Shown: one piece after another, positions 2 through 33,459 of the stretch
How the letters are laid out: the number at the start of each line of letters is the position of its first letter
How positions within the stretch are numbered: the stretch's first letter is position 1
Origin: an uncultured Chloroflexia bacterium
GTDB taxonomy: Bacteria; Chloroflexota; Anaerolineae; B4-G1; SLSP01
NCBI GenBank assembly: GCA_963751345.1
Contig: CAVVUS010000014.1
Span: forward strand, 64,001 to 128,000
DNA: 64,000 nucleotides
Direction: 5' to 3'
Made by a program: the position numbers and the translations under genes
Notes under the pieces: model-generated
What the model was told of the DNA's origin: nothing
What the model saw: only the letters and a program-made list of their open reading frames with translations
Databases searched by the model: none

Positions 2-832
2 CACAACGTCTCGTTCAGCTATGAGCGCGACGTGCCCGTCATCCGCGACGTCTCGTTCGAGATCCAGCCGGGGGAGATCATGGCGCTGGTAGGGCCGAGC
101 GGGGCGGGCAAGAGCACGATCTTCAACCTGATCCCGCGCTTCTACGACCCGACCGAGGGCAGCATCCAACTCGACGGGCACGATCTGCGCTCGATCACCC
201 AGCAGAGCCTGCGGGAGCAACTGGCGATTGTCCCCCAGGAGACGCTGCTGTTCGGCGGCACGATCCGCGAGAACATCCTCTATGGGCGGCTGGACGCCGG
301 CGAGGACGAGATGATTGCGGCGGCTCAAGCTGCCAACGCCCACGAGTTCATCCTGGGGTTTCCCGACGGGTACGAGACGATCGTCGGCGAGCGCGGCACG
401 AAGCTGAGCGGCGGCCAGCGGCAGCGCATCGCCATCGCGCGCGCCATCCTAAAGGACCCACGGATCTTGCTGCTGGACGAGGCCACCAGTTCGCTGGACA
501 ACGAATCGGAGGGGCTGGTGCAGGAAGCGCTCGACCGCCTGATGCAGGGCAGGACGACGGTGATCATCGCTCACCGGCTGAGCACGATCAAAGTCGCCCA
601 CCGCATCGCCGTGCTGGAGGCCGGACAGATCACCGAACTGGGCACGCACGAGGAACTGATGGAACGCAACGGCACGTACGCCCGCCTCTACGCCATGCAG
701 TTCCGCGATCCGGAAGAGGAGCTGGCGGCGTTACAGACTGCCATGGCTGCCTATCAAGCCAACAAGGAGACGCTAATCGAGAAGAGGCCGAGCCTCCTTA
801 GCGTCCTGAGAAGTGCTGCCGGCCCGGACTAG
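2..832 (+). CDS. ABC exporter ATP-binding domain (C-terminal part of an MsbA/ABCB-type protein; truncated by window edge)
   Basis: Walker A GPSGAGKS, signature LSGGQRQR, Walker [12 protein letters not shown]; frame is open from position 2. Confidence 0.92.
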
Positions 833-912
833 ATCCGTGGCACCCGATTGACAGATCGACCAACCGGCATACGCTATGTCCGGTATCACTTAGCGATAGG
901 GAGGTAAGAACG

Positions 913-1305
913 ATGACCGGGTATGTAGGACCTATTGAGAAGCTGACGGTGGAAAACAACTACTTCCGGCAGGTGCTCTTCACGGGCGAGCACATGCAGC
1001 TTGTGCTGATGTGCCTGCAAGGCGGCGAGGAGATCGGCAACGAGGTGCACGAGACCGTCGACCAGTTCTTCCGCATTGAGGAAGGCAAAGCCAAGTTCGT
1101 CTTCAATAATGAGGAGGAGCACGTGGTCGGCGACGGAGATGCGGTGATCGTGCCGGCGGGCACGTGGCACAACGTCATCAATGTATCTCCAACCGACAAG
1201 CTCAAGCTCTACACCGTTTACACACCCCCCAACCATCCCGATGGGACGGTGCACAAGACAAAGGCCGAGGCGGACGCTGCGGAGGCCGCCGAGCACCACC
1301 ACTAG
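913..1305 (+). CDS. Cupin domain protein
   Basis: GNEVH..VDQFFRIEEG and GD.VIVPAGTWHNV cupin motifs; GGAGG RBS upstream. Confidence 0.9.
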   Translation: MTGYVGPIEKLTVENNYFRQVLFTGEHMQLVLMCLQGGEEIGNEVHETVDQFFRIEEGKAKFVFNNEEEHVVGDGDAVIVPAGTWHNVINVSPTDKLKLYTVYTPPNHPDGTVHKTKAEADAAEAAEHHH

Positions 1306-1351
1306 CCCGCCATTCACACGACACCCGGTTGGTTCGGGGCCGCCGTATCTG

Positions 1352-1416
1352 ATCTTCCGGGAAGCTCATAGGCTCGTATCTGCGCTGATAGAGCTTCACG
1401 CAGCTTCCCGGAAGAT
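1352..1416. repeat. REP-like element, family A copy 1
   Basis: ATCTTCCGGGAAGCT (1352-1366) and its perfect reverse complement (1402-1416); the same arms recur at 18638-18700. Confidence 0.8.
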
Positions 1417-5700: not shown

Positions 5701-7253
5701 TCGTGCTCCGCAGCTGCCACCACACGGGCCGTCGGACGGTACAGTCGCAGGGCATCTCGTCCCCCCACCAAAACCTCGCCCAGCCAGCCCCACGCGAACT
5801 GTCCGCTCACGCGGCGATAGGTCGCCTCCGTGACCCATACTGACCCGGGAGGCACTCGCTCGCGTACTTCACGCAGCTGCTGCAGCGCCACCGCGTGCAC
5901 CGCCACGCCACCGAGCTCCTTGGCCAGGATCACCGCTTCCCCGGTCGTCACACCTACCTCATAGGCCAGCCAGGCGGTCTCGACCCCCGGCACCGTACGT
6001 TCTGCGACCGCCTCGAGAGCATCAGCGATCTCCAGCGCCGCCAGCACCGCCCGCTCTGCATCGTCCTCGTGGGCAATCTCCGCCCCAAAAACCGCCACGA
6101 GTCCCGCCTCCCCCGTCTGCACGATCGTTCCGCCATACCGCGCCGCCGCTGCCCGCGCGAGCTCGAGGATCTCGTGCAACGTCTCGGCCTGCATCTCCAG
6201 GTCGACACCTGCAGCCTCGTTCCCGATGCCACCTGTTTCGACCGACAGGAAGGTCACCGTGCGGCGCTCCCCTCCCGGTAGGGGGCCTGCCCTAGTTGTC
6301 GACCCTTCGATGCGCCCTGACGACGGTTCGGAAGGCAGACGCGCGGCACCGGGAGAAGGTTCCCCCGGGACGACGGGCTGATCTGAGATGACGGCTTGGC
6401 TGAGGGTGCTCGAAGGTTCCCGCCGGGGAGGCCGCACTGCGACAGGTCCCACCTCTACAGGCGCCGGCGGGCTGACGTCTCCGCGACGGATGTGCTCGTA
6501 GAGCTCCCGCGTCGCCGCCTCCGGCTCGATCCCCAACTCCGCGTCCAGGATCTCCACACATCGCTCGTACTGCGCCAACGCCGCCGCCCGCTGCCCACTC
6601 GACACCAGTGCCCGCATCGCCTGCTGGTGCGCACTCTCCCGCCACGGCTCCAACTCGATCTGCCGCCGCGCGCACTCAAGGCTCTCCCTGTGGGCTCCCC
6701 GCTGTTCGTGGACCTCGCTTAGCTCCCCCAACGCATCCAGTACCTGCACGTGGAATGACTCTCTCTGCGTCACCATCCACCCCTCGAACTCTGCCGAGGG
6801 ATACGAGAACCCCGCCATAAAGTCCCCCCGGTAGAGTTCCGTAGCCGCCCGCAGATGCGCCACACAAACGGAGCATACCTTGTCTCCTGGATGATCGTGC
6901 GCCTGGACTGTTCTGAGGTGCTCATTGAAAGCATGAACGTCCACCCAGACATCGCTGTCTGCGTTCAACTGCAGCTCACTGCGGGAGATCAACAGGTACG
7001 GGGGATCGGCTTCGCGGTCGCCGATCGCGCTGCGCAGGCGAAAGAGGGCAGCCCGCAGGTTCCGCAGCGCCTCAGTATCGGGCCACTCAGGCCACAGCAG
7101 CCCCGCCAGCACCTCCCGCGGCGTGGCGTGCTCCGCGGTGACGGCCAAATAGGCCACCAGCGCCCGCGCGGCATCCACCTCGAAGCCCACCGCCGCTTCG
7201 CCGCTGTGGGTAACCTGCATCGACCCCAACAATCCAACGTTCAGTGTGCCCAT
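2777..7253 (-). CDS. SARP-type wHTH/BTAD + degenerate class III cyclase + P-loop NTPase + TPR regulator, copy 1 (several frameshifts; error or pseudogene)
   Basis: LLWPEW..ALRNLR and LEPWRESAH (BTAD), AHEDDAERAV (cyclase fold), GDAGIGKSRL (Walker A), LEDLHWAD (Walker B), AEGNPFF, TPR-like C-terminus; spread over consecutive ORFs from 5355-7253 down to 2777-3250. Confidence 0.85.
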
Positions 7254-27290: not shown

Positions 27291-27340
27291 GAAAGTTGGC
27301 GTCACTCTATGTGTGTACCAAAGGCCGGAGGCAGTCACGT

Positions 27341-28018
27341 ATGGCGAAGGTGTTAGTGGTCGACGACGACGAAAGACTACTCAAGATGTTGCAGCGTACC
27401 CTCTCGTATGAAGGCTTCGACGTCATCACAGCCGGCGATGGGCTCGAGGCTTTGGCGCGGCTGGGCGAGCTGCCCCCCGACGTGATCATCCTGGATTGGA
27501 TGATGCCCCGGCTTGATGGCGTGGGTGTCCTCGAGGTCCTTAACATGGAGCACAATCAGACGCCGGTGCTGATGTTGACGGCACGTGACGCGGTCCAGTA
27601 CCGTGTGGAAGGATTGGAGCGAGGAGCAGACGACTATCTGGTCAAGCCGTTTGAGCCCATCGAGTTGATCGCCCGGGTCCGTGCGCTTCTGCGCCGTGTC
27701 GGCCAGGATACGCAGACCACATTGGTGTTCGACGACCTCAGTCTGGACCCATCGAGCCGCGAAGTCAGCCGGGGAACGCGCAAGTTCGAGTTGACGCCCA
27801 CTGAGTTTGATCTCCTGCATCTCTTCATGCGCCATCCACATCAGGTATTGGAGCGTGGGCAGATTCTGTCGCAGGTCTGGGGCTATAACTTCGCCGGCGA
27901 CGACAACATCATCGAAGTCTATGTCGGCTACCTCAGGAAGAAGACCGAAGCCGAGGGCGAATCACGGTTGATCCAGACCGTCCGCGGCATCGGATATGTG
28001 CTTCGGGAGCAGATTTAG
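27341..28018 (+). CDS. OmpR/PhoB-family response regulator (MprA-like)
   Basis: REC domain (ILDWMMP, ADDYLVKPF) plus wHTH (EVYVGYLRKK, IQTVRGIGY). Confidence 0.92.
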   Translation: MAKVLVVDDDERLLKMLQRTLSYEGFDVITAGDGLEALARLGELPPDVIILDWMMPRLDGVGVLEVLNMEHNQTPVLMLTARDAVQYRVEGLERGADDYLVKPFEPIELIARVRALLRRVGQDTQTTLVFDDLSLDPSSREVSRGTRKFELTPTEFDLLHLFMRHPHQVLERGQILSQVWGYNFAGDDNIIEVYVGYLRKKTEAEGESRLIQTVRGIGYVLREQI

Positions 28019-29538
28019 TGTCTATACGGCTTCGCTTAACCTTACTCTATAGTGCGATCCTCGCACTTACCTTGATTGCGTTCAGCACGGTGTTGTACGC
28101 GACGCAAGCGCGGTACACCCTGAACATCGTGAAACGTGATCTGGATTCCAATGCCAGGCAAGTAATGCTGGCGTGGACTCGCTTCCAGACAGCTTGGGAT
28201 GCACGCGGTATGCCGCCCCGGCAGGCACCGGTCTCTCCGGACGTCTCCTATGGCGAGCAGGCTCAACAGGCTCTTCAGCCACTCGTGAGGGGTGAGCTCG
28301 CCCGTGATTCGGTTCACCTTCTCGATGCTGGAGGAGAGGCACTGGCCCTATCGATGAACGATCAGAGCCCGACGCTGCCCATCAGTCAGGAAGGATTGAC
28401 AAAGCTTCAAGCCGGCAGCGCGTGGATGGAGATCAGCCAGGGGGAGGATTCGCGATGGCTGATCTTCAACCTCCCCGTCGTCACCTCGATGACACCGCAT
28501 GCGGACGGCAGTGTCACGCCGAACGTCATCGGGATTGTGCAGCTCGCCCGCTCCCTCGCGGATCGGGACCGTTCGCTGCACTCGATGGGCATCACCCTGG
28601 TCGTAGGGAGTCTCACCACGACCGTGCTGGCCTTTGGCGCGGGGTGGGTGCTCGCCGGAACGACACTCAAGCCCATCCAAAAGATCACGGAGACGGCCCA
28701 GGAGATCGGCCAGTCGCAGGATTTCTCATCCAGGGTCGAGCACGACGGGCCGAACGATGAGTTAGGGCGGCTGGCGACGACCATCAATAGTATGCTGGCC
28801 CGGCTGGAGGGCTCATATCAACAGCTCGCCCACGCGCTGGAGGTCCAGCGCGACTTCGTTGCGGACGTCTCCCACGAGCTCAGGACGCCCCTAACCACGG
28901 TCCGTGGCAATCTCGCGCTTATGAGACATGACCCGCCCCTGCCCGCGGATGAACAGGTGGAAATCCTGGACGATCTTATCGCCGAAAGTGCCCGACTGAG
29001 CCGTCTGGTCAGCGATCTTCTGACGTTGGCCCGCGCCGACGCCGGTCACCGGCTGCCGGTGGCGCCGGTTGAGGTCGAAGGCATCGTGGATGACGTATGC
29101 CGGCAGGCCAATCTGCTCGCACCTGACCGCGAGGTCACCTGCGATTTCGGGGCGCCATCACCAAGCATCGCGAACGAGGACGCCCTGAGACAGGTGCTCC
29201 TTATCCTTACGGACAACGCGATCAAACACGGCGAGGGTCCCATCCGAATCGCCACACGAGAGAACGACCATCATATCCGTATCAGCGTACAGGACAGCGG
29301 GCCCGGCATGCCCGAGGACCTACAAGCACGGGTCTTCGACCGCTTCTATCGCGGGGACGCTTCACGCTCGACGCCAGGCTTTGGCCTGGGACTCTCGATT
29401 GCCCGCAGCTTGACAGAGGCCCAGGAAGGCACGATTTCAATGGAGAGCCAGGCAGGGGTAGGAACCACCTTCATCGTGGAGCTTCCGCAGGCGGAAGGTA
29501 ACGTGACGAGTGAGGATCTGGTATTGCCGGATGACTGA
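28018..29538 (+). CDS. HAMP-domain sensor histidine kinase (MprB-like)
   Basis: Two TM segments, HAMP, SHELRTPLT, NAIKH, DSGPG, GFGLGLSI; overlaps the regulator stop codon. Confidence 0.92.
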   Translation: MSIRLRLTLLYSAILALTLIAFSTVLYATQARYTLNIVKRDLDSNARQVMLAWTRFQTAWDARGMPPRQAPVSPDVSYGEQAQQALQPLVRGELARDSVHLLDAGGEALALSMNDQSPTLPISQEGLTKLQAGSAWMEISQGEDSRWLIFNLPVVTSMTPHADGSVTPNVIGIVQLARSLADRDRSLHSMGITLVVGSLTTTVLAFGAGWVLAGTTLKPIQKITETAQEIGQSQDFSSRVEHDGPNDELGRLATTINSMLARLEGSYQQLAHALEVQRDFVADVSHELRTPLTTVRGNLALMRHDPPLPADEQVEILDDLIAESARLSRLVSDLLTLARADAGHRLPVAPVEVEGIVDDVCRQANLLAPDREVTCDFGAPSPSIANEDALRQVLLILTDNAIKHGEGPIRIATRENDHHIRISVQDSGPGMPEDLQARVFDRFYRGDASRSTPGFGLGLSIARSLTEAQEGTISMESQAGVGTTFIVELPQAEGNVTSEDLVLPDD

Positions 29539-29595: not shown

Positions 29596-32500
29596 TCAAT
29601 TGTCGTGGATTGGCACCCCCACCAGCATCCGGCTCTCCACGTCGACCAGCGGATCGACCTCACCGGCTGCCGCGGCCCGGGCGAAGACGAGGCCGGGGTA
29701 TTTTGCCCTCAACGCCCGCGTCAGCACGCTGAAGCTCTTGGTCACATTTCGCTCGCGGAAGGTCGCGCCCATCTGCTCCCACTGAGTCAAGATACCGGCC
29801 AGCCCCCGTCGCGCACCCGCGACGCAGGCGAACAACTCCTCAGGCGTCAACCCCTCGCTGTAGCCATGCCGCACGATGACAACACGGCCATGCTCGTCGA
29901 CCACGGGGCCGCGCCCCGCCACGAGCCACGCCATCTGCTCCAGTCCTGCGCCGCGCGCCTTGATCATCAGGATCTGCGGCCCAAGGTCGGCGGCCGTGGT
30001 GTCCGTCATGGCAGCTAACGCTTCTTGAACGGCCTCTCCATACATCTGCCACAACGCCGAATCCGTTGAGTCGGGCCGAGAGGGGAGCGGTGTGGTCTCC
30101 CCGACGAAGGGGCTCAGGGACGCGCCAGAGACTTTGACCGTCTCGAACCCACGCTGCATCAGTCGCTCGACAGCCAGCATCGCCGCACCCACGCTCTCCT
30201 CCCCCGCTCCCCTTGGAAGCAGCTTGGAGAGTGCGTCGGTCACGGTGGCAGCCGTGACAAAACCGCCGGAAGTGTTGACCGGCTGCCCGACGATCTCCGA
30301 GATCTCCGCCAGCCCCGCCGGATCGAGGCTCAGCTTCGCCAGCCCCCAGAGCGCATCCAGCGCGGGCACCAACGAGGCAAGCAGCCCGGGATCGCGCATC
30401 AGATGGCCGGCGACGGAGAGTCGCTCCCCGGCTTCCTGCTGGGCCGCTTCCGTGATAGGCAGGAAGACGGCGGCCTGGTCGCCGTCGAAGTCGGCATCCA
30501 ACCACCTGCACAGTGCAGGATGGAGGTGAAGCGCGTCATCCGGAACCCGGACGGGATGGAACGCCAGGAGTGCGGTGGGTGTCAGGGTCGGCGCGCGGTT
30601 GATGTAGACCCACGAGTGGGCCATCACGGCGTCAAGCACCTGCGAGGCGCGCTCGCTCCTGGCTGGGACGGCCTTCCCGTCGCCGGTCTCCCGTACGACG
30701 AGGGGACCAAAAAGCGCCCACGCCATCTCCTCGGGCATGCCGATCTGTTCCAGCGTCAGCTCGGCGGCGGGCGCCAGCACCGTGCGGGCACTGAAGAGCT
30801 CGCGGGCGCCGAGCCGTAACTGGACCGGCGTGAGGAGCGCGTCGAAGAGGGCACGGACGTGGCGTTCGAGCTGCGCGGTCGCGTCATCTACCAAGGTCTT
30901 GGGCGTCTGTGCGGCGAGCATACGCCTCACCCTGTCGTTGGCCTCGACCACCGCGCGATAGAGCCGCGGGAGCTCGTCCGACGCCTCCCACCAGCCTCCG
31001 GGCGGGAAGAGTACCTCCCTGAGGCCACCAACACGTTCCCTCTCGCCCGGATCGCCGATCTCGGTCAGGCGACGCTCGGGCAGCCACGGATGGGGGACCG
31101 GTCGCGCCAGCTTCAGAGCATCCTCCTGTGGCGGCGCGAAACGGAACGCCAGGCCGTTCTCCCCCAGCTCTGCCTCGATCCCCGCGACCCGAAGCCGGTC
31201 GGCCAGCTCCGCCAACAGTGGGGTCGGCGGAGGGGCCTGGGCCACAGGACCGGCGGCCAGCCGCTCTGCCAGCGTGCCGGCATCCTGCCCGCCCACTGCC
31301 GGGTGTTCAGATTCTCGCGGATGATCTCAAAGGCGCCCAGATCCCGCAGCATGAAGGTCTCCATCTCGCCCGTGCGCTGGCCCCATCGCTCTCCCGTCAG
31401 GACCAAGCGTCACGCAGCTTGTCCTTGGCGAGATGGTACAACCGCCCCCAGTAGACCCAGCCGACGGTGCTCGGCGCGTCGAGCGGCGGGCCATCCTTGC
31501 CCTGCGTGAGCGTCACCATGCCCGACTCGGGCAATCCGGCAGCGACCAGGCGCGCGCGAAGCTCATCCGCCGAAGGCGCACCAAAGGGCGGTACGATCGC
31601 CGGGTTCGCCTCGGCCTTCGCGACGCTGCCCAGGACCGCCTCGCGGATCTGTCCGAAGTTCATCCGCCGGTGCAGGTTGGCGAAGTTGAAGACCAGGTCG
31701 ACCGGCGTGCCATCGGGAAGATGCGGCATCCGGTCGTCGGGCAGGATCTGGCCGACCACCCCCTTCGTCCCGTGGCGATTGCTCATCTTGTCGCCGATCC
31801 GGAGCGCATAGGGGGTGTCGAACCGCCGCGCGCACGACTCGCTGACGACGATGGCATCCTCGTACGTCCCCGGCCCCCAGGAGACAAAGGCCGTGAGCAG
31901 GTTGCGACCGGCCCAGAAGTCCGGCGACAGCAGGGCGTCCGGCTCGTTGCCGGTCTGAACCCACGCGGGCTCCGGCATCTGCTGCACGATCCACTGCCTC
32001 AGCATATTCGCCCCCATCAGGATGCGGTTGGGATCGTCGTGCTCCAGCAGGGGGATCATCGACGCGGAGAGCCCCAACGTCGCCTCGGGGCGCTCGTCGA
32101 CGATGACCAGCCGCCCATCTCGGACGGTCGCGCCGACGGCGATGGTGAAGACGTGGCCCATGTTCGATCCCTCGGGCACCTCGAAGGGGCAGACGTAGCC
32201 GAGCTGTCCGGGGGCGATCACGTCGTGGGCCTCCGGGACCAGGAGTCGACGAAGGTGGGTGTAATATGAAAACCAGTTGGTCTCGTCAACCGGCTGCACG
32301 GTGACAAATCGCCCTTCCGTGCCGGCCATGAACTCGGCAACCCACGTGTCGAGGGGAAGCCACGCACGGGCCAACGACGGACATCCCAGGGCAAATCGGC
32401 AGGTGCGTGCCCCAGGCGCGCCGCGACGAAATCGTAGAGCTGTTCGCCGACGCAGCGAATCTCGGCCTGATCCAGCTCCGGGCGCGAGGCGGTAGGGATC

Positions 32501-32745
32501 ACCACCCTGCGCTGCCCACCGATCTCAAAGATACCCCGCTCGTCCGGCTGGGGCAGGTCAAAGGCCACGTCCAGTGCGTCGTCGTGTGCCCCCAAGGTAA
32601 CCGCCACCCGGCATTCGTAGACACCGGTCGACTCGACGGCATAGCTGAGCAGCGGCAGCCGCTCGGCAAGCAGCGCCGGCAGCCGCTCATTCAGGAACGT
32701 ATCGTATGAAGCTTTGTGCCAGGGTGTCGACACATCAATCGTCAT
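29596..32745 (-). CDS. Miniature fused RNA polymerase beta-beta'-like protein (~1050 aa; frameshifts near 32378, 31405 and 31298)
   Basis: In order: GIFEIGGQRRVV, IRCVGEQL, DETN...THLRR, VCPFEVPEGSNMG, IPLLEHDDPNRILMGANMLRQ, YEDAIVVSE, GDKMSNRHGTKGV, RMNFGQ, GQRTGEME (beta blocks); then LYRAVVEANDRV, NRAPTL, DADFDGDQ, GLTPEELF..GARRGL, AGEVDPL (beta' blocks). Confidence 0.9.
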
Positions 32746-33362
32746 CGTATTCCTCCTCCCTTATCCCCATCTTCTTCCCACTCACGTGCCAACTGTGCCC
32801 GGGCATAATGCAATCGCGACTTTACCGTCCCCTCGGGAATGTCCAGCGCGTCCGCCGCCTCCCCGAGACTCATCTCCAACTCGTAGACGAGCCGGAAAAC
32901 CCGACGCTTCTCCTCCGACAGCTTGTTGACGAGCTGGCGATACCTCGCGCGCTCCTCCGCCTGCTCGACGGCGGCCTCCGGCCCGAGAGAACCGGCATCC
33001 ACCATCCAGGCGGGCACGCGATTGTCGGCGTCGTCATCATCGTCGACGTCCGGGGGGATCTCCAACGGAAGCTCCCGCCGCCGCTGTACCGTGCGGAGAT
33101 GGTTGAGCGCCAGATTGGTCGCGATCCGGTAGAGCCACGCCTTGAACGTGCCCTCCCCCTGCCATTGGTCGGCCCGCATCCACACCCGCAGGAAAGTCTC
33201 CTGCACCACGTCGTATGCTGCAGCTTCATCGTGAACGATGTGGAGAAGGTAAAACCGCAGCGACGTAGCATAGCGATCGACAAGCACCTCGAACGCGTGC
33301 GAGTCGCGATCGAGAATGCTAGTCACCAGGTCACTGTCGGGTACGGGCGACGCGTCTTGCAT
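32742..33362 (-). CDS. ECF-type RNA polymerase sigma factor
   Basis: Region 2 DVVQETFLRVW..FKAWLYRIATN; region 4 EAADALDIPEGTVKSRLHYAR; the stop overlaps the next ATG (ATGA at 32745-32742). Confidence 0.93.
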   Translation of the reverse strand: MQDASPVPDSDLVTSILDRDSHAFEVLVDRYATSLRFYLLHIVHDEAAAYDVVQETFLRVWMRADQWQGEGTFKAWLYRIATNLALNHLRTVQRRRELPLEIPPDVDDDDDADNRVPAWMVDAGSLGPEAAVEQAEERARYRQLVNKLSEEKRRVFRLVYELEMSLGEAADALDIPEGTVKSRLHYARAQLAREWEEDGDKGGGIR

Positions 33363-33378
33363 GATGCCTCTACTATAC

Positions 33379-33405
33379 AAGACACCGCTGGGCGCAGGAA
33401 AGTTC
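33379..33405 (-). promoter_or_regulatory. ECF-type promoter GAACTT-N16-GTCTT upstream of the sigma gene
   Basis: Minus strand reads GAACTT tcctgcgcccagcggt GTCTT, 16 nt before the ATG. Confidence 0.65.
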
Positions 33406-33459
33406 ACTACCACTTGTGTCTCTTCCCAGACGGACTAGGATAAGCACCGAGAGGCGACC

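Follow-up and report, generated by a model that had tools for sequence, protein, structure and literature searches.

A reduced beta-beta' fusion encoded beside a dedicated ECF sigma factor: a possible sigma-dependent minimal RNA polymerase in Chloroflexota

Here we describe a module of two genes (approximately 3.8 kb, with its own promoter) in a stretch of 64,000 nucleotides, the window, from an uncultured Chloroflexia bacterium. One gene encodes an ECF-type sigma factor. The other, of approximately 1050 codons (minus strand, 32745-29596), encodes a fused and radically reduced relative of the RNA polymerase subunits beta and beta' and is second to the normal rpoB and rpoC of the same genome. 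The module is best explained as a self-contained, sigma-dependent minimal RNA polymerase, a reading to which we give a probability of roughly one half. The dedicated sigma factor would dock, via its region 2, on the retained clamp helices and guide the mini-enzyme, instead of the host core, to promoters of the form TGAAC-N15-GGTGTC. There the conserved DFDGD / (E)D / GDK / K centre would make RNA without alpha, omega or the host core. Because trigger loop, flap, lid, rudder and zinc finger are missing, such an enzyme would be expected to have no proofreading and to be insensitive to hairpins as pause and termination signals, to NusA and to Gre-type control.

The mini-polymerase family is of bacterial beta/beta' origin. 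Its profile matches beta chains (5.9e-68) and beta' chains (2.8e-46) of the PDB, and Foldseek gives E values of about 1e-23 to 1e-18. Predicted models were obtained for the homologue P0001 (pLDDT 90.2, pTM 0.88) and for segment D of the window gene (pLDDT 87.3, pTM 0.78), and whole beta and beta' chains superpose with approximately 500 residues of each half (Z 27-30). Residues 1-529 of the P0001 model match the full span of beta/Rpb2 chains (8i23_C 22..1165, Z 29.5, 525 aligned, rmsd 2.9), and residues 45-566 of the segment D model superpose on E. coli beta' 16..1363 (8fvr_G, Z 27.4, 491 aligned, rmsd 2.9). Pfam assigns Rpb2_3 (5.1e-08) and Rpb2_6 (5.5e-40) to segment B, which also maps by profile to the genome's own rpoB, and Rpb1_2 (3.7e-20) and Rpb1_1 (1.3e-4) to segment D; the Rpb2_7 match of segment C (E 0.0078) is below the cut-off. 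The NCBIfam models of complete subunits are missed by a wide distance (TIGR02013, 172.3 bits vs a cut-off of 801; PRK00405, 172.5 vs 896; TIGR02386, 128.3 vs 963.5). Table 1 gives the positions of the segments and of the features discussed below.

Table 1. Features of the sigma and polymerase module (positions in the window)
Feature	Position	Strand	Remarks
Promoter-like motif TGAACTTTCCTGCGCCCAGCGGTGTC (TGAAC-N15-GGTGTC)	33381..33406	-	directly upstream of the sigma gene
ECF-type sigma gene	32742..33362	-	probable start ATG 33362, 206 aa; stop overlaps the polymerase start (ATGA)
Polymerase segment A	32383..32745	-	remnant of the beta N-terminus, 121 codons; 68% identity to P0001 residues 1-121
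Frameshift 1	32378..32382	-	metagenome contigs of ~94% identity lack two bases (32376 or 32377, and 32382) and are in frame
Polymerase segment B	31415..32377	-	fork CPFEVPEG, PLLEHDDPNR, beta barrel with YEDAIVVSE, 14-residue linker, GDK..NRHGTKG; 77% identity to P0001 residues 123-443
14-residue linker at the canonical flap position	31796..31837	-	P0001 model: strand, short helix and loop between ED and GDK
Frameshift 2	31395..31414	-	related contig in frame, without 31405 and 31414
Polymerase segment C	31299..31394	-	GERWGQRTGEMETFMLRDLGAFEIIRENLNTR; beta region I / start of Rpb2_7; 88% identity to P0001 residues 450-481
Frameshift 3	31285..31298	-	related contig has one extra G behind 31296
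Polymerase segment D	29596..31284	-	beta C-terminal piece and reduced beta'; 66% identity to P0001 residues 487-1054
Strands GLAFRFAPP and KLARPVPHPWL	31081..31155	-	few residues between them; at the position of the beta' zipper/zinc finger
Clamp helices (coiled coil)	30835..30987	-	expected docking site of sigma region 2; profile alignment and model
Catalytic loop LDADFDGDQ	30475..30501	-	D, F, D, G, D columns kept in 53, 54, 54, 54 and 54 of 54 members
Bridge helix, 33 residues	29746..29844	-	model helix 485-517; matched by profile to GSRKGLADTALRT in the genome's own beta'
Region H-like C-terminus	29611..29685	-	structural alignment ends at E. coli beta' 1363; motif-level match by eye

Relative to canonical beta and beta', the protein has kept both double-psi barrels, complete in their metal- and substrate-binding residues, together with the fork and the hybrid-binding motifs. 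Clamp helices, F-loop, bridge helix and region H are likewise present. Beta has lost the flap and most of its lobes; the zipper and zinc finger of beta' are also missing, as are rudder, trigger loop and jaw. A first, sequence-only reading of this DNA had aligned the protein by eye and proposed that the clamp helices are kept while flap, zinc finger and trigger loop are absent, and this pattern is borne out at each position. Exactly 14 residues, SCARRFDTPYALRI, lie between YEDAIVVSE (31864-31838) and GDKMSNRHGTKG (31795-31760); in the genome's own canonical beta the distance from ED to GDK is 133 residues, vs 5 positions in the family profile. At the beta-beta' junction ELADRLRVAGIEAEL (31209-31165) leads through one short strand, GLAFRFAPP (31155-31129), to KLARPVPHPWL (31113-31081) without a zinc finger. 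Only two Cys (residues 263 and 491) occur in the 566-residue frame with the beta' part, the strand region has a weak profile match (E 0.059) to MGHITLAAPVAHIWY of the genome's own beta', and the structural alignment of segment D begins at E. coli beta' residue 16. The clamp helices, represented by LPRLYRAVVEANDRVRRML (30972-30916) and LERHVRALFD (30870-30841), align with those of the genome's own beta' (domain E 6.7e-39) and fold, in the segment D model, into two long antiparallel helices (residues 104-128 and 133-154); two long helices appear in both models. The 33-residue helix that aligns with the start of the canonical bridge helix is separated by about 20 residues from FARAAAAGEVDPLVDVESRMLVGVP, with which the protein ends, vs roughly 400 residues, including GEPGTQLTLRTFHTGG, in the genome's own beta' (hand count). 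The losses are a trait of the family and not deletions made in the assembly, being common to intact homologues of 993-1067 aa, and the two confident models have no room for an equivalent of the flap or the trigger loop.

The active centre has been kept. The beta-type barrel motifs YEDAI, GDK and NRHGTKG are present in the window, and the gene retains 84 of the 85 columns that are invariant in the family. Among 54 aligned members the D of the (E)D motif is D or E in 51, the GDK lysine is K in 52 and the second K is K in 44. The first acid of the (E)D motif, which we take to be the equivalent of E. coli beta E813, is conserved as E in just 28 members, with A in 17, which counts against the sigma-dependent reading. 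Eight residues (three Asp, Rpb2-D837, Rpb1-R446 and P448, and Rpb2-K979 and K987) are described as invariant in all two-barrel RNA polymerases (PMC2919709). The window polymerase appears to carry all eight, as judged by mapping the yeast numbering through the motifs NRAPT, DFDGD, ED, GDK and HGTKG. One option raised at first, that the protein acts non-catalytically, is disfavoured by the conservation across the family of DFDGD (53-54 of 54), GDK (52-54 of 54) and NRHG (51-54 of 54). Slow synthesis and short products were the other options raised at first; YonO, a precedent for a polymerase that works without trigger-loop homology, is reported to be as efficient in catalysis as cellular RNA polymerase (PMC5467207).

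The gene is not a single open frame in this assembly. Three frameshifts divide it into the four frame segments delimited by tblastn, and two of them fall inside the range covered by the sequence-only reading. Neither these breaks nor the sigma partner and the promoter were noticed in that reading. Programmed frameshifting at all three sites is rejected, since homologues with an intact gene are unshifted there and the sites share no common slippery motif. Relatives of about 94% identity are in frame at the frameshift sites, which says nothing on the reality of the window's own indels; they come from three low-depth sets of one soil-metagenome study (depth 3.6-4.2), so that differences seen in a single contig may be errors. 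Indel errors do occur in this assembly, since the essential rpoB is itself frameshifted once, inside a conserved motif, so that the breaks in the polymerase gene may be either assembly error or a very recent inactivation.

We lean towards assembly error as the source of the three frameshifts. That the copy is instead a freshly inactivated pseudogene and the module idle in this genome, which would be compatible with any functional reading, has in our estimate not quite an even chance. Three frame changes within 1.1 kb, none of them in a long homopolymer, would fit such a loss, as would the single break found in approximately 28 kb of long genes (rpoC, rpoB, gyrA and its paralogue, two uvrA, a UvrA-like gene and secA). 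The polymerase is also broken in 4 of 80 other loci, including that of Dictyobacter kobayashii, the one cultured carrier; these breaks, together with those in the window, speak against the sigma-dependent reading as well. However, the four segments are correct reading segments without an internal stop, retain the invariant residues counted above and are 66-88% identical to intact homologues. Frameshifts are also seen in two of the other broken copies (L015 and L085), and the genome, with 49 contigs, 93% completeness and 5.6% contamination, resembles a metagenome bin.

The family is rare and patchily spread. The best 120 of 430 matches in a protein search are fused proteins of 993-1067 aa with Rpb2_6 and Rpb1_2 (E <= 1.5e-144). 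A scan of one genome per species gave 387 confirmed relatives among 413 pattern matches, and at least 8 phyla are named among the 80 loci kept. Members are approximately 45-75% identical to one another, and 2 of 120 sampled genomes of the same class carry the polymerase. No member was found among 50,697 phage records, where no place covers 80% of the query and all matches are below 60% identity, or in the plasmid collection searched; 26 pattern matches on viral contigs included none that was confirmed as family. A PHROGs scan of P0001 gave local matches only, to full-length beta- and beta'-like families. The PADLOC defence models yielded no family at E <= 0.01 for P0001 or segment D, and a single marginal, unrelated match for the module sigma (E 0.0064). 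We found no published description of the polymerase family in the full texts searched; supplements, for example on the ECF group contexts of PMC7826278, may mention it. The passages of PMC2919709, PMC7826278, PMC8999054 and PMC11515920 that answer to the terms looked up hold no description of a mini-polymerase family.

The sigma gene is the one constant companion of the polymerase. In 74 of the 75 loci with enough upstream DNA, the gene immediately before the polymerase, in the same orientation, encodes an ECF sigma. Besides sigma no neighbour is conserved: the next gene clusters recur in at most 12 of 81 loci, where they reflect synteny among the related loci of one group, and no alpha- or omega-like gene conserved beside the module was found among the 81. 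In 53 of 71 loci the next gene downstream is convergent, and thus no cargo gene is co-transcribed there. The window sigma matches Pfam Sigma70_r2 (2.2e-16), Sigma70_r4_2 (5.3e-13) and Sigma70_ECF, the NCBIfam model sigma70-ECF (2.5e-31) and TIGR02937 (108.5 bits vs a cut-off of 42.9), and with regions 2 and 4 only and approximately 200 aa it belongs to the ECF class (group 4). Its mechanical ORF extends to GTG 33413 and overlaps the promoter; the position of the promoter and the AGTAGAGG spacing common to the loci make ATG 33362 the probable start. The mean column identity of 43 aligned module sigmas is 50%. Within a sample of 121 genomes of the class, this sigma subfamily occurs only where the polymerase occurs: the sigma profile reaches 291-303 bits in the three genomes that hold the polymerase, always adjacent to it, and the next best match is 140.6 bits.

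The original proposal that the protein could bind sigma region 2 thus gains support from linkage and co-occurrence, and structure prediction adds weak support for sigma binding by the mini-polymerase. The predicted complex of segment D with the window sigma scored 0.48, and the best of three controls 0.00; at least 86% of contacts are shared between runs, and the partner pLDDT is at least 67. The mark used is reached by 58 of 80 solved complexes and by 2 of 110 mismatched pairs, and at scores of 0.60 or less by just 7 of the 80 solved complexes, as well as by both mismatched pairs. Sigma-beta' complexes have already been solved, so the pass may come from likeness to them.

ECF promoters have a consensus with a GAAC-containing -35 box. 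The motif TGAAC-N15-GGTGTC occurs in the window only in front of the sigma gene (0.06 matches expected). The same motif precedes the sigma gene in 67 of 75 loci, 58 of them exactly, and is present in 0 of 64 control regions. In a PWM scan of the whole genome the module promoter scores 41.6 bits vs 15.5 for the next site; with the PWM limited to the two promoter boxes it scores 33.8 vs 19.0, and the best score of a reversed-genome control falls between 18 and 20. The exact core motif has 5 sites in the genome vs 2.0 expected, and neither it nor either PWM pointed to a second credible sigma target in this genome. When the strict pattern was applied to five other carrier genomes, the module promoter was the sole match in two, a third added two copies within a coding region, and two had none. 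These two extra matches, in a Latescibacterota genome, are identical to each other, lie antisense to a 727-aa ORF that contains them, and were dismissed. The only recognisable promoter of this kind thus fronts the module itself, which would be at least auto-regulated.

A polymerase specific for this promoter would then appear to transcribe only itself, which leaves its output unexplained. The single recognisable promoter per genome suits another reading, namely that the sigma factor, on the host core, does nothing but switch the operon on and that the mini-enzyme works sigma-free on other templates (single-stranded DNA, RNA, nicked or foreign DNA) to give primers, R-loops or short RNAs. We consider this unlikely. 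It is in line with the loss of the elements for RNA-DNA separation and the RNA exit channel (flap, zinc finger and rudder), and a conflict or stress system would fit the patchy, accessory-like distribution in the sampled class and the G+C content of the gene region, the highest of the window (0.686 vs ~0.62). However, the clamp helices have been retained in conserved form, and no sampled genome has the sigma subfamily but lacks the polymerase, an exclusiveness that an ordinary regulator need not have. The family, moreover, neither matches known defence families nor occurs in the phage, plasmid and viral collections searched.

The gene order bears on a further alternative. In most ECF operons an anti-sigma gene follows the sigma gene with overlapping stop and start. 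The mini-polymerase occupies this position, with the same order and overlap, and may simply hold the sigma factor through its clamp helices in a negative feedback, with catalysis vestigial or secondary. The single auto-regulated promoter agrees with such a role, and a conserved anti-sigma gene was not found nearby in the loci compared. We nevertheless regard it as quite improbable, since catalytic and substrate-binding residues that are nearly invariant among members so divergent are unexpected for a mere binding protein of 1050 residues.

The sigma-dependent reading has its own difficulty at the promoter. The flap tip, which positions sigma region 4, is missing, yet the promoter has a conserved -35-like box; this box may be read instead by the sigma factor on the host core enzyme. 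In its widest form the sigma-dependent reading would posit an orthogonal second transcription machine in at least 8 phyla, made of a private ECF sigma and a single-chain polymerase of about 115 kDa, reduced to catalytic core and clamp helices, which would start transcription at a promoter class of its own and do without alpha, omega, flap, zinc finger and trigger loop. We put this forward tentatively, as a real possibility that we hold to be rather less than evenly likely.

The textbook view is of one RNA polymerase core per bacterium. A second core of this kind, strongly reduced and with a sigma factor of its own, is found conserved and intact across hundreds of species. If active, it would tell which parts of the enzyme sigma-dependent initiation and RNA synthesis really require, and flap, zinc finger, rudder and trigger loop would all be dispensable. 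In the widest reading given above, it would be the smallest cellular-type RNA polymerase known to depend on a sigma factor, and a minimal model of the enzyme provided by nature. An active enzyme of this size would also be a tractable structural target and, needing just one gene for the polymerase, one for the sigma and a single promoter, a compact orthogonal system for expression. Given its rarity, patchy spread and single self-promoter, the cellular output might be a stress response, conflict or self-maintenance.

Several known systems share parts of this design. Canonical RpoB and RpoC have the same catalytic motifs, fork, clamp helices, bridge helix and a partner of the sigma70 family, but comprise approximately 2600-2800 aa in two chains, with the flap, zinc finger, rudder, trigger loop, jaw and lobes that the single chain of the mini-polymerase lacks, most of the lobes being gone. 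Natural full-length fusions, of which that of Helicobacter is one, likewise join beta to beta' in one polypeptide; they are the complete and only polymerase of the cell (the NCBIfam models have 2839-2890 positions), whereas the mini-polymerase is accessory and has approximately 60% of the residues deleted. Further such fusions are described for Wolinella succinogenes and Candidatus Adlerbacteria (PMC11515920). YonO of the Bacillus subtilis prophage SPbeta is, as described, also a two-barrel single chain of about 100 kDa, and demonstrates that a protein so built can serve as a processive DNA-dependent RNA polymerase (PMC5467207). Its published description sets it apart: YonO is phage-borne and has a very distant homology to cellular RNA polymerase confined to few active-site residues (PMC5467207), whereas the mini-polymerase is chromosomal, comes with a sigma factor and can be aligned with beta and beta' along most of the chain, retained clamp helices included.

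Orf6 of the yeast killer plasmid pGKL2, an Rpb2::Rpb1 fusion of 982 aa (PMC2919709), has likewise lost about half of the coding sequence and arrived at approximately 1000 residues. Going by that description, the two may have reached the same design independently; Orf6, unlike the mini-polymerase, is derived from a eukaryote, resides on a cytoplasmic linear plasmid and has no sigma factor (PMC2919709). The Salmonella phage Arash (gp206/gp216/gp10) is described with a fused beta-beta', its own sigma and a similarly slimmed core without a nearby alpha or omega gene (PMC10585845). Polymerases of the Arash type sit in phage genomes, in contrast to the family described here. The main texts of an ECF classification and a review (PMC7826278, PMC8999054), in the passages that concern such partners, mention no polymerase homologue. 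The operons of ECF sigma and anti-sigma genes share the arrangement: an auto-regulated promoter of the GAAC -35 type, then the sigma gene, then a partner gene in tight coupling with it. In those operons the partner is a protein with an anti-sigma domain, and here it is a homologue of RNA polymerase.

The mini-polymerase, a single-chain reduced fusion of beta and beta', is encoded by four collinear segments (A to D) and not by one ORF, as was evident from three-frame translation and from tblastn with P0001, its closest intact homologue. A shift of the same sign is required at every junction. Pfam domains Rpb2_3 and Rpb2_6 are found in segment B and Rpb1_2 in segment D, where Rpb1_1 (the clamp-helix part) also matches below the cut-off. 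An ECF sigma gene lies directly upstream and its stop overlaps the polymerase start as ATGA. The G+C content of the window peaks at 30001-32000 (0.686 versus ~0.59-0.65, about 0.62, elsewhere); the peak falls on the polymerase gene and would fit acquisition by transfer. Genes for an OmpR-type response regulator and a histidine kinase (27296-29538, plus strand) run towards the end of the polymerase gene, leaving 58 nt between the stops. This pair is not conserved beside the module in the other loci.

Coordinates of the promoter-like motif and the mini-polymerase gene with its segments
Feature	Position	Strand	Basis
Promoter-like motif TGAAC-N15-GGTGTC	33406-33381	-	only match in the window, 0.06 expected
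Mini-polymerase gene, ~1050 codons	ATG 32745 to stop 29598-29596	-	translation of three frames and tblastn
Polymerase segment A	32745-32383	-	68% identity to P0001 residues 1-121 (tblastn)
Polymerase segment B	32377-31415	-	77% identity to P0001 residues 123-443 (tblastn)
Polymerase segment C	31394-31299	-	88% identity to P0001 residues 450-481 (tblastn)
Polymerase segment D	31284-29608 (matched)	-	66% identity to P0001 residues 487-1054 (tblastn)

A profile of 54 intact members (alignment A1) was searched against the canonical beta and beta' of the same genome (G000). The matches in the beta half are the fork (CPxETPEGPN), PFLEHDDANR, the NFEDAI motif, GDK..RHGNKG and, with a 15-residue deletion, region I. 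Between NFEDAI and GDK..RHGNKG there are five profile positions versus 133 residues in canonical beta, the interval in which the flap lies. Long canonical stretches between the matched blocks, where the lobe and protrusion domains are located, have no counterpart in the profile. The beta' half matches the strand behind the zinc finger weakly (E 0.059), while a strong match (E 6.7e-39) covers the clamp helices, a 25-residue gap at the rudder position and the NADFDGD barrel; further on, funnel and F-loop are matched, as is the beginning of the bridge helix. Family proteins close with a region H-like motif ~50 residues past the bridge helix, where canonical beta' has ~400 more residues, including GEPGTQLTLRTFHTGG (by our count). 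With two cysteines in the whole frame that encodes the beta' part, neither beta' zinc site can exist.

Structural models of P0001 (pLDDT 90.2, pTM 0.88) and of segment D (87.3 and 0.78) agree with these losses. Residues 1-529 of the P0001 model superpose on the whole beta/Rpb2 span (8i23_C 22..1165, Z 29.5, 525 aligned, rmsd 2.9), so the N-terminal 120 residues are a beta remnant and no new domain. Segment D residues 45-566 superpose on E. coli beta' from 16 to 1363 (~490 aligned, Z ~27). All that the model places between ED and GDK is a strand, a short helix and a loop, and the 33-residue bridge helix is followed by three short helices. The sequence-only reading, which had the flap, the zinc finger and the trigger loop apparently lost and the clamp helices kept, is confirmed as an observation and partly supported in its interpretation. 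What it had noticed is the visible part of a sigma-plus-minimal-polymerase module, the copy of which in G000 is interrupted.

Active-site conservation was counted across the 54 intact members. DFDGD is retained in 53-54, NRHG in 51-54, and the G, D and K of GDK in 54, 53 and 52, respectively. At the second lysine position 44 members have K (M in P0001, K in the window), and 50 members retain R and 50 retain P of NRAPT. An acidic residue (D or E) occupies the barrel position corresponding to Rpb2-D837 in 51; the acid beside it is E in only 28, and is also missing in YonO-like enzymes and RNA-dependent polymerases according to PMC2919709. A near-invariant active site at 45-75% overall identity argues for catalysis and against the non-catalytic role once suggested. 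The suggestion that the enzyme may be slow does not follow either, since YonO, a member of this superfamily without trigger-loop homology, is described in PMC5467207 as being as fast as cellular RNAP, less accurate and devoid of cleavage activity.

Enriched k-mers in the DNA ahead of the sigma gene pointed to the motif TGAAC-N15-GGTGTC (extended, rTGAACyTtt...gCGGTGTCxT), which occurs in 67 of 75 loci (58 exact) versus none of 64 control regions of equal size. Because the motif extends over the 5' end of the mechanical sigma ORF of 223 codons, the real sigma start is probably ATG 33362, behind a AGTAGAGG spacer common to other loci. The first 17 codons of the mechanical ORF (MVVNFPAPSGVLYSRGI, 33363-33413, minus strand) are the promoter read as protein. 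A conserved N-terminal sigma peptide "MN....GVL" in several loci was rejected, as it is the DNA motif TGAAC...GGTGTC. Genome-wide in G000 the operon site scored 41.6 bits versus 15.5 for the runner-up; a two-box scan gave 33.8 versus 19.0 for the next site and 18-20 for the best in the reversed genome. Five other carrier genomes were scanned with a stricter pattern. In two, the operon itself gave the sole match; in one, the operon match was joined by two identical copies within a coding region; and two had no match because their operon promoters are variants.

When the flanking ORFs of 81 loci were clustered all-against-all, one conserved neighbour family, the sigma, emerged in 63 loci; the next clusters reached at most 12. 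A sigma profile recovered a sigma-like frame upstream on the same strand in 74 of the 75 loci with at least 650 nt of upstream DNA, most of them by construction, as the profile was trained on these loci, with the window and ten further loci outside the training set. The frame ends from 5 nt inside to 327 nt before the polymerase start. Module sigmas are 41-83% identical to that of the window and share an acidic linker followed by P-x-W-M-I-D...L-G-P (alignment A3 of 43 sigmas). This nearly invariant motif lies between sigma regions 2 and 4 (residues 134-145 of the window's sigma ORF), shows a degree of conservation unusual in an ECF linker, and could make contact with the reduced polymerase cleft. 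Among 121 genomes of the class, the profile reached 291-303 bits solely in G000, G103 and G111 (140.6 at best elsewhere), the three that hold the polymerase, where sigma adjoins it in each; the sigma is therefore private to the module. Complex prediction for segment D with the window's sigma (score 0.48, best control 0.00) lends weak support to the pairing. In 53 of 71 loci, which are not phylogenetically independent, the next gene downstream has a convergent orientation.

Promoter, specificity factor and catalytic core make up the parts list of a minimal holoenzyme. We give roughly even odds (about 0.5) to a sigma-dependent minimal polymerase with its own promoter. The sigma would dock on the clamp helices, enabling the single-chain core to open TGAAC-N15-GGTGTC promoters and transcribe from them, its own first, which would create a self-amplifying switch. 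Without a flap, no known element would hold sigma region 4, and no further target promoter was found; both points keep two other readings alive. It is unlikely that the polymerase is promoter-independent and merely expressed by the sigma on the host core, and quite improbable that its role is to hold the sigma as a sink.

The functional reading rests on the family and not on the window copy being alive. No long homopolymer is present at the three frameshift sites. Soil-metagenome contigs ~94% identical to the window (three runs of one study, depth 3.6-4.2 at the sites) differ by indels exactly there: the contigs lack two bases at 32376/32377 and 32382 and a further two at 31405 and 31414, and they have an extra G behind 31296. 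These indels restore the frame in all three places. The coding content of the window copy has not decayed, since its segments have no internal stop and retain 84 of the 85 columns invariant in the 54 intact members (in the remaining one, I is replaced by V). Indel errors do occur in the G000 assembly (49 contigs, 93.4% complete, 5.6% contamination), as the essential rpoB is split by one frameshift (contig C10, ~145,896-146,029) into two frames that overlap, one of 723 and the other of 624 codons; its location within the conserved ..KY / RSNQSTC.. motif points to such an error. We lean slightly towards a local assembly error in the window as well. Very recent inactivation of this copy has a little less than an even chance: the long genes examined in G000 hold about one break in 28 kb (rpoB included) versus three in 1.1 kb of mini-polymerase, and a single open frame encodes each of rpoC, gyrA and its paralogue, two uvrA, secA and a UvrA-like gene of 1640 codons. 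Two contig pairs of G000 (C11:3137 / C20:64, and C12:79130 / C35:32488) share identical 70-base stretches, in one pair close to contig ends, which reflect either repeats or redundancy among the contigs of the bin.

Broken copies are found in five of 81 family loci. Besides the window they comprise L015 and L085, with frameshifts, L068, with a single in-frame TAA (at 6128) in an otherwise intact gene, and the only cultured carrier among 80 loci, Dictyobacter kobayashii Uno11. In the last (L087, 7987-8040), ~18 codons with two TGA are out of frame before the frame is regained, either a compensated indel pair or a sequencing error. A lone in-frame TAA also interrupts the family member at G111:C154:5763-8774, whose gene is intact apart from it.

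A homologue search limited to longer proteins gave 430 matches, the best 120 of which are all 993-1067 aa with Rpb2_6 and Rpb1_2 and are called "hypothetical protein" wherever a name is given. In a scan of 185,579 species, each represented by one genome, 387 of the 413 pattern matches were confirmed to be relatives. Record titles of the best 80 of these 387 include Chloroflexota (Anaerolineae, Caldilineae, Ktedonobacteria), Poribacteria, Latescibacterota, Planctomycetota, Armatimonadota, Hydrogenedentota, Gemmatimonas and Candidatus Moanabacter. G000 has one copy alongside normal rpoB and rpoC. Two of 120 other genomes of the class (at least 80% complete) carry the gene; one sampled genome of the same family and two of the same order lack it. 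No member was found in phage or plasmid records and none was confirmed in viral contigs. The mini-polymerase is thus a rare, patchily distributed, chromosomal accessory gene.

Full-text searches and term look-ups within the main texts of relevant papers gave no description of the family, and the sigma plus minimal-polymerase module is apparently undescribed. Compared with canonical rpoB/rpoC, the protein is a bacterial-type beta/beta' derivative that scores far under the equivalog cut-offs and is without the three modules that define those subunits. Several designs come near it. Full-length beta-beta' fusions (PMC11515920) are not of this family. YonO (PMC5467207) is likewise set apart by its description, as is Rpb2::Rpb1 Orf6 of yeast killer plasmids (PMC2919709), which belongs to another family. 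Fused cores that phages encode together with a sigma of their own, that of phage Arash for example (PMC10585845), are also near in design and distinct from the mini-polymerase family.
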